64,000 nucleotides of DNA from Escherichia coli. GTDB taxonomy: Bacteria > Pseudomonadota > Gammaproteobacteria > Enterobacterales > Enterobacteriaceae. Below are positions 19,103 through 20,062 of the stretch, in pieces. The stretch lies in assembly GCF_048403405.1 (NCBI RefSeq), contig NZ_CP183129.1; one strand, written 5' to 3'. Position 1 is the stretch's first letter, and every line of letters starts with the position of its first letter. The notes under the pieces are model-generated. The model saw only the letters and a list, made by a program, of their open reading frames with translations, did no database searches and was not told where the DNA came from. A program made the position numbers and the translations under genes.

Positions 19103-20028
19103 TCTGCAACATACAGGTGCAGCCGGGGAATGATCAAACGAAGCGGCTGCGCCTGTGGTTTATAACGGTGTTGCACATTGTCGGCATCGTAATTTAACAA
19201 CTCCCCAACGTCCGGCACGCCCGCGCCATTATCCCGATTAATCAGCGCAATAAGCGGTGTAGGGCAAGCGTGTTGTACTTGTTTTTGATCTCCCTTGTAC
19301 CAGACGCGGGCAATCGGCTGCACCTTCACCGGACGTTTGATTTTTAACTTCGCGTCCTGTGGCAGGGTAGCAATATCCTGATACTCTCTCTCCAGTTTTC
19401 TTTGCCACTCCTCGCGCGTCCACGGTGCGACACTGCGCGGTGATTTCAGGCTTTTTTCCAGCTGTGCCAGGACTTCATCACGATGCAAATTCTTAATGAT
19501 ATGTTTATTGGCCCAGCCAAAACGTAAAGTGGCGGGGTCGTGCAGAACAGTGAGCGTTCGGTAAGCATTAAGGGTGATCAGCCCCGGCAAATGACGATGC
19601 ACCCATTCAAAACGCGCCGCTGTGGGGAGTTCTGACTCAACCGTGACGATACGCTCGAACGTAGTCTTGAGTTGATTGATGCGCTGAATATGACTGACCA
19701 ACGCTGCTTGCGAAAGGTTATCGACCTGGTAACACAATACGCCAGGTAGACGAACAGCGGCCTTGCTGCTGCGATTTTCGGACTGTTGTTGAATAAATAA
19801 ATGGCGGAAATGACGTAACGCCAGCGACTGCGCGTCGTTGCCGAGATGTTGCTTTACCTCAATACGATTAAGCGGATTATGCTCATCCTCTTTTTTTACC
19901 TCCGGCAAAGAGAACACGCGGGCAACCAGCAATTTGTGCTGTTCTAGCTCAGCGGCAAATGCAGCCAGTTCTTGTTCCATCTGGCGAAAGGTAGTGTTGA
20001 GTCGGTCTACGAGATCGTAACGCGCCAT
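19099..20028 (-). CDS. tus: DNA replication terminus site-binding protein Tus
   Basis: Supplied ORF 19099..20187 includes an extension; recalled 309-aa Tus starts at [22 protein letters not shown] (cat at 20026..20028). Convergent 4-nt overlap with the fumC stop. Confidence 0.95.
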
Positions 20029-20038
20029 AATATTAACC

Positions 20039-20062
20039 ACTTTAGTTACAACATACTTTATT
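20039..20062 (-). promoter_or_regulatory. TerB-like replication terminus (Tus-binding) site in the tus promoter region
   Basis: Minus-strand sequence AATAAAGTATGTTGTAACTAAAGT contains the Ter core GTATGTTGTAACTAAAG, 11 nt upstream of the tus start. My remembered TerB has one fewer A in the 5' flank, so the exact flank is uncertain. Confidence 0.8.

Follow-up and report, generated by a model that had tools for sequence, protein, structure and literature searches.

The intergenic region between rstB and tus in the Escherichia coli DNA analysed here (a single stretch of 64,000 nucleotides, referred to throughout as the window) contains the chromosomal TerB orthologue of this species, as identified by its sequence and by its position between the two genes. 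Considered together, the sequence identity, the position and orientation of the site, the presence of an intact cognate Tus and the frequency of the allele among sequenced genomes make it very probable that this TerB works both as a polar barrier to replication forks and as the operator of tus, bound by the Tus protein that is encoded just downstream. The TerB–tus arrangement is the textbook one, already known and ordinary, and its importance beyond correct annotation is small; it confirms that the window comes from the terminus side of the E. coli chromosome and sets the direction in which forks pass through it. The features discussed below are collected in Table 1.

Table 1. Features of the rstB–TerB–tus locus and the adjoining prophage in the window, and landmarks of the near-identical complete genome TUM14771.
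Feature	Sequence record	Position	Strand	Basis or remark
TerB 23-mer	window	20039..20061	-	K-12 TerB search; sole Ter-consensus match in the window
Ter core, positions 6-19, GTATGTTGTAACTA	window	20043..20056	-	exact match to GNRNGTTGTAACKA
C(6)	window	20056	+	plus-strand base c; G/C(6) pair of the Ter core
A-run AAA (K-12: AA) with 1-nt insertion	window	20057..20059	-	alignment to K-12
10-nt spacer GGTTAATATT, Ter position 23 to tus ATG	window	20029..20038	-	read from the sequence
Candidate extended -10: TG (20070..20069), C, TATAAA (20067..20062)	window	20062..20070	-	read by eye
Alternative hexamer TAAAAT	window	20065..20060	-	overlaps Ter positions 1-2
Candidate -35 TGGTCA	window	20085..20090	-	17 nt upstream of TATAAA; read from the sequence
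tus CDS, 309 aa + stop	window	19099..20028	-	ATG 20028..20026; RefSeq annotation
rstB, upstream neighbour	window	20105..21406	-	stop codon 20107..20105, 76 nt from the tus ATG
Prophage integrase	window	51579-52874	-	
823-aa RecE-like exonuclease	window	53218-55689	-	
O-like replication initiator	window	58694-59713	+	
dnaA	TUM14771	3,192.6 kb		
oriC	TUM14771	about 3,241.6-3,241.9 kb		mnmG-mioC gap
dif	TUM14771	708,275		
TerC, ACATAGAATGTTGTAACTAATAT	TUM14771	726,648-726,670	+	
TerB	TUM14771	787,514-787,536	+	

A search of the window with the K-12 TerB 23-mer, allowing up to three mismatches, returned a single match with two ungapped mismatches. The matching 23-mer, ATAAAGTATGTTGTAACTAAAGT, runs on the minus strand from position 1 at 20061 to position 23 at 20039, the latter 11 nt away from the first base of the tus ATG (20028), and the minus strand from 20062 to 20026 reads A-ATAAAGTATGTTGTAACTAAAGT-GGTTAATATT-ATG. 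The initial annotation had reported a Ter site at 20026-20062, 11 nt upstream of the tus start, and this is borne out. The same geometry is given for K-12 in the legend of Figure 1 in PMC8707476, which puts TerB 11 bp ahead of the tus start codon; a Ter site is recognised as TerB by its place between rstB and tus at this distance, and that is the location found here.

The conserved elements of the site are all present. The 14-nt Ter core consensus, GNRNGTTGTAACKA, has its only exact match in the window at TerB, and the conserved G6 together with positions 8-18 (ATGTTGTAACT) is exact at 20056..20044. Position 5 is an A (plus-strand t at 20057), which retains the canonical A/T pair; an A/T pair at this position is needed for the lock, and its loss in TerF and TerH has been proposed to abolish lock formation (PMC8707476). 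The neighbouring C(6) is the cytosine that flips into the Tus pocket (PMC8707476). The claim that the core is intact holds, as both the G/C(6) pair and the core match K-12 TerB exactly, and since they do, the mismatch in the core or at C6 that had been named as evidence against the site is absent from the exact alignment to K-12 TerB.

A fortuitous resemblance to Ter, devoid of function, has a probability close to nil. An ungapped match of 21/23 positions (23/23 with one gap) did not occur once when the search, again with up to three mismatches, was repeated in 100 dinucleotide-preserving shuffles of the window, and more than 5,400 genomes have the site in this same place ahead of tus; the shuffles and the conserved position together rule this reading out. 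A relaxed core pattern pointed to no further Ter sites in the window, with 13 matches against 13.3 expected by chance. Two additional GTTGTAAC octamers, both oriented opposite to TerB, were rejected: the one in malX (3752-3774, plus strand) fails at Ter positions 9, 18 and 19, and the one in ynfE (44451-44473, plus strand) at positions 6 and 18. As these octamers occur at chance level they are not Ter sites, and the octamer alone is not diagnostic.

The K-12 genomic 23-mer, AATAAGTATGTTGTAACTAAAGT, is the reference TerB string of the literature, where it appears in three papers, and the window site departs from it solely by an additional A, placed in the A-run that immediately precedes G6. In the alignment of the rstB–tus intergenic region, K-12 reads AAAAT-AAGTATG where the window reads AAAATAAAGTATG, and the region measures 76 nt in the window and 75 nt in K-12. 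With the numbering anchored on the core, the inserted A shifts Ter positions 1-3 (positions 2 and 3 are T and A in the window versus A and T in K-12) and moves the core 1 bp farther from the candidate -10, while positions 4-23, including A5, G6 and core positions 8-18, are the same in both. A one-base difference from TerB in the 5' flank had been remarked on in the initial annotation, which attributed it either to a strain polymorphism or to an error in the TerB sequence used for comparison. The difference is real, and because it takes the form of a 1-nt insertion in the alignment to K-12 and the exact allele is found in other genomes (262 of 5,426 complete E. coli genomes), it is a strain polymorphism, and the TerB sequence used for comparison was correct.

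Judging from its place among positions 1-5, an outer flank with little or no Tus contact, the extra A is most likely neutral with respect to the K-12 sequence. Among E. coli phylogroups, ter sites vary at positions 1-5, 7 and 19-23 alone, all of them positions at which Tus contact is slight or absent (Goodall et al. 2021, PMC8347550). An explicit description of the TerB +A indel was not found in the literature; it is a minor variant that fits the known pattern of ter variation.

The distribution of TerB alleles was obtained by counting exact matches to 40/41-mers that cover the 3' end of the -10, TerB and the spacer in the 5,426 complete E. coli genomes. The K-12 type (AATAAGT) gave 2,331 exact matches, ATTAAGG (found in O157, BL21 and others) 1,256, AATAAGG (several B2 strains) 798, and the +A type of the window (ATAAAGT) 262, or about 5%. 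Ter position 7 is dimorphic, with G in about 2,780 and T in about 2,630 of the 5,426 genomes, and position 2 is polymorphic for A/T; rarer changes in the TerB region fall at position 23 (Ec40743) and in the ATG spacer, which is the same in K-12 and six of the eight other aligned strains and is one base off in each of ETEC6335 and MNCRE44. The alleles beginning with AATAAGG and ATTAAGG occupy the same locus and have the same core (positions 6 and 8-18) as the window; they vary solely at positions already described as variable (PMC8347550), and their G7 resembles TerC. The window, in contrast, keeps T7 like K-12, and it differs by an indel whereas the other alleles differ by substitution. TerB thus comes in at least four common natural alleles, all of which differ only at positions that tolerate change, and this pattern lends support to the published view of selection acting on the Ter core and not on its flanks.

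The site is also closely associated with the putative tus promoter. A candidate extended -10 element (TG, C and TATAAA) directly abuts Ter position 1, and an alternative hexamer, TAAAAT, can be read in a register in which strain GABEEC10 carries a perfect TATAAT. The candidate -35, TGGTCA, is invariant across 10 aligned strains. A scan of 19700-20500 with sigma-70 and terminator consensus sequences called no minus-strand promoter and no intergenic terminator; TATAAA went uncalled because the scanner demanded a T at hexamer position 6. A text search of the literature for a mapped tus transcription start returned nothing useful. Either candidate hexamer would put the transcription start within the Ter site, where bound Tus would occlude RNA polymerase. 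In K-12, Tus autoregulates its own synthesis via TerB, which lies inside the tus promoter (PMC8707476, PMC8347550, PMC10331603); the work of Roecklein (1991/1992) and Natarajan (1991) is cited for this in these papers, and in PMC8707476 and PMC10331603 also for the relief of tus repression in K-12 on loss of Tus or of TerB. The candidate -10 beside the Ter site fits this published autoregulation, and the conserved geometry suggests that tus would be autoregulated at the window site as well.

Between the candidate -35 and -10 elements lies a 10-nt patch, GGCTGTCGAT (20075-20084, minus strand), that differs at 8/10 positions from K-12 and eight other aligned strains, all of which read AGTCACCAC followed by C or G; the intergenic region is otherwise near-identical. 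The patch completes a 7-bp inverted repeat (GCCTGAC-15 nt-GTCAGGC, 20082-20110) that takes in both the rstB stop codon and the candidate -35.

The gene that follows the site encodes a well-conserved Tus. Its product matches Pfam PF05472 (E=5e-137) and is identical at 302/309 residues (98%) to K-12 Tus and to the proteins of PDB entries 1ECR, 2EWJ, 2I05 and 2I06, and all matching genomes carry the RefSeq label tus. The remaining seven residues are substituted: I23A, H27E, H116R, K119Q, H126R, A221T and N224D. Residues E49, I79, F140, H144, G149 and R198, reportedly identified as pocket or contact residues of Tus in the work of Kamada in 1996 and Mulcair in 2006, are unchanged as read from the alignment, and the cognate Tus is predicted to have intact DNA-binding and cytosine-pocket residues.

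Set against K-12 TerB as a whole, the window site shares the rstB/tus locus, the 10-nt ATG spacer, the sequence of positions 4-23, the orientation with respect to oriC, dif and TerC, and a neighbouring tus product that is 98% identical; it is unlike K-12 TerB in the extra A, in the core that lies 1 bp farther from the -10, and in the divergent 10-nt patch of the -35/-10 spacer. These differences could be taken to mean that the +A allele is functionally altered and gives the lineage a different set-point of autoregulation or a different stability of the lock. The insertion does sit in the stretch that separates the Ter core from the candidate -10, and the lineage also carries the 8/10-nt spacer replacement and the seven Tus substitutions, which together make a distinct haplotype. 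We nevertheless regard an altered function as improbable, given that Tus makes little if any contact with positions 1-5, which are naturally variable (PMC8347550), that Ter positions 4-23 are the same as in K-12, that none of the seven Tus substitutions falls at a known pocket or contact residue, and that the occurrence of the +A allele in 262 complete genomes of varied sources suggests that it is tolerated. More doubtful still is the notion that the extra A, the spacer patch and the seven Tus substitutions form a co-adapted haplotype for the control of tus; if they did, the steady-state level of Tus, and hence the occupancy of the fork trap, would be unlike that of K-12.

The window corresponds to the E. 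coli terminus region (fumC-tus-rstB-rstA) in the reverse complement of the K-12 orientation, and the rstA-rstB-TerB-tus-fumC locus is present in 5,418 of the 5,426 complete E. coli genomes. Positions 1-51,544 of the window are 99.99% identical to positions 807,574-756,031 of TUM14771 (NZ_CP128875.1), and the orientation of the site was assessed in this near-identical complete genome. There, TerC and TerB are co-oriented, 61 kb apart, and are reached by the clockwise fork after dif, as in K-12; from this co-orientation it follows that TerB would block the clockwise fork, again as in K-12. [quoted passage not shown] The anticlockwise fork, which crosses the window from left to right, enters at position 23, on the permissive face. 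The initial annotation had proposed a check of the site against fork direction in a full genome; as carried out in TUM14771, it gives the K-12 orientation, with the permissive side of TerB turned to the anticlockwise fork that normally replicates this region and the non-permissive side to the clockwise one. The oriC/dif/TerC map therefore places TerB in the orientation expected of a Ter site, permissive to the fork of its own replichore.

The GC skew is positive overall on the plus strand of the window and negative on the plus strand of the record between 727 and 807 kb. These signs are as expected for replication of the stretch from left to right in the window and are supportive of the orientation. 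A sharp flip of the skew was not found at dif in TUM14771, where the 50 kb to the left are at about zero and the right side is clearly negative, so the orientation argument rests on the oriC/dif/TerC map. The TerC of this lineage (NZ_CP128875.1; Table 1) carries C2 and A7 in comparison with K-12 TerC, ATATAGGATGTTGTAACTAATAT, and these differences are again solely at known-variable positions.

The position of TerC raises the question of whether forks reach TerB at all. Because TerC is 61 kb nearer dif and would stop them first, forks might rarely arrive at TerB, which in vivo would then be essentially just the tus operator. TerC does share the orientation of TerB and is placed between it and dif, and the E. 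coli trap is of 'type II', in which the tus-adjacent Ter is not the innermost one (PMC8707476). However, 2-D gels of wild-type K-12, as cited in PMC10331603, showed arrested forks to be highest at terC and terB, so that TerB does serve there as a barrier, and the roles of barrier and operator are not exclusive; a purely regulatory TerB is, in our judgement, unlikely.

On the reading that we favour, a TerB that serves as both fork barrier and tus operator, Tus binding, C(6) locking and repression at the window site would proceed as in the published work on K-12. A Tus monomer would bind the 23-bp asymmetric Ter site. The clockwise fork, which once past dif and TerC travels leftwards through the window, would meet the position-1 end, where DnaB would unwind the G/C(6) pair and C(6), at 20056, would dock in the cytosine pocket of Tus to give the locked complex; in the published account, the lock forms after unwinding by DnaB from the non-permissive side has freed C(6) (PMC8707476). 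A fork travelling from left to right (the anticlockwise fork, usual for this region) would instead meet the position-23 end and displace Tus. As the operator of tus, with the -10 abutting or overlapping Ter positions 1-2 and the transcription start inside the site, TerB occupied by Tus would exclude RNA polymerase, and the level of Tus would be kept low and self-limited.

The conservation of a tus-vicinal Ter across Enterobacterales has already been published (Toft et al. 2021, PMC8707476). Like the window site, the tus-vicinal Ter sites of other Enterobacterales described there lie directly upstream of tus and conserve G/C(6), and they combine the functions of barrier and operator, the two roles predicted for the window site. 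Type I traps have the vicinal Ter as their innermost barrier, whereas in the window, K-12 and Salmonella (type II) TerC is nearer to dif. A comparable logic is found in Bacillus subtilis, in which the terminator protein likewise acts through a promoter-located Ter site to repress its own gene, rtp (PMC10331603); RTP, which acts as dimer pairs, and the architecture of its sites are unrelated to Tus-Ter, and the system is an analogue and not a homologue.

Several further observations concern the region at large. From 51545 to 64000 the window no longer follows TUM14771 but runs into a lambdoid prophage, with the GC content falling to 43-47%. Besides the three genes listed in Table 1, this stretch encodes a ydfU-like gene, and its junction, on the ydfJ side, is in the same place as that of the Qin prophage of K-12. 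At least 80% of 51545-64000 is present in 567/5,426 genomes; strain A0 34/86 shares the prophage end and is not collinear with the window at the expected offset. One plasmid-typed E. coli record carries rstB-TerB-tus and may represent a mis-assigned replicon or a chromosomal fragment. About 8 of the 5,426 complete genomes are without the intact region, among them the clinical isolate FDAARGOS_1251 (NZ_CP069445.1), in which, at 1604-2076 of the extracted locus, a deletion has taken away TerB, tus and the 3' end of rstB, leaving a fragment of rstB 14 nt from the fumC stop.
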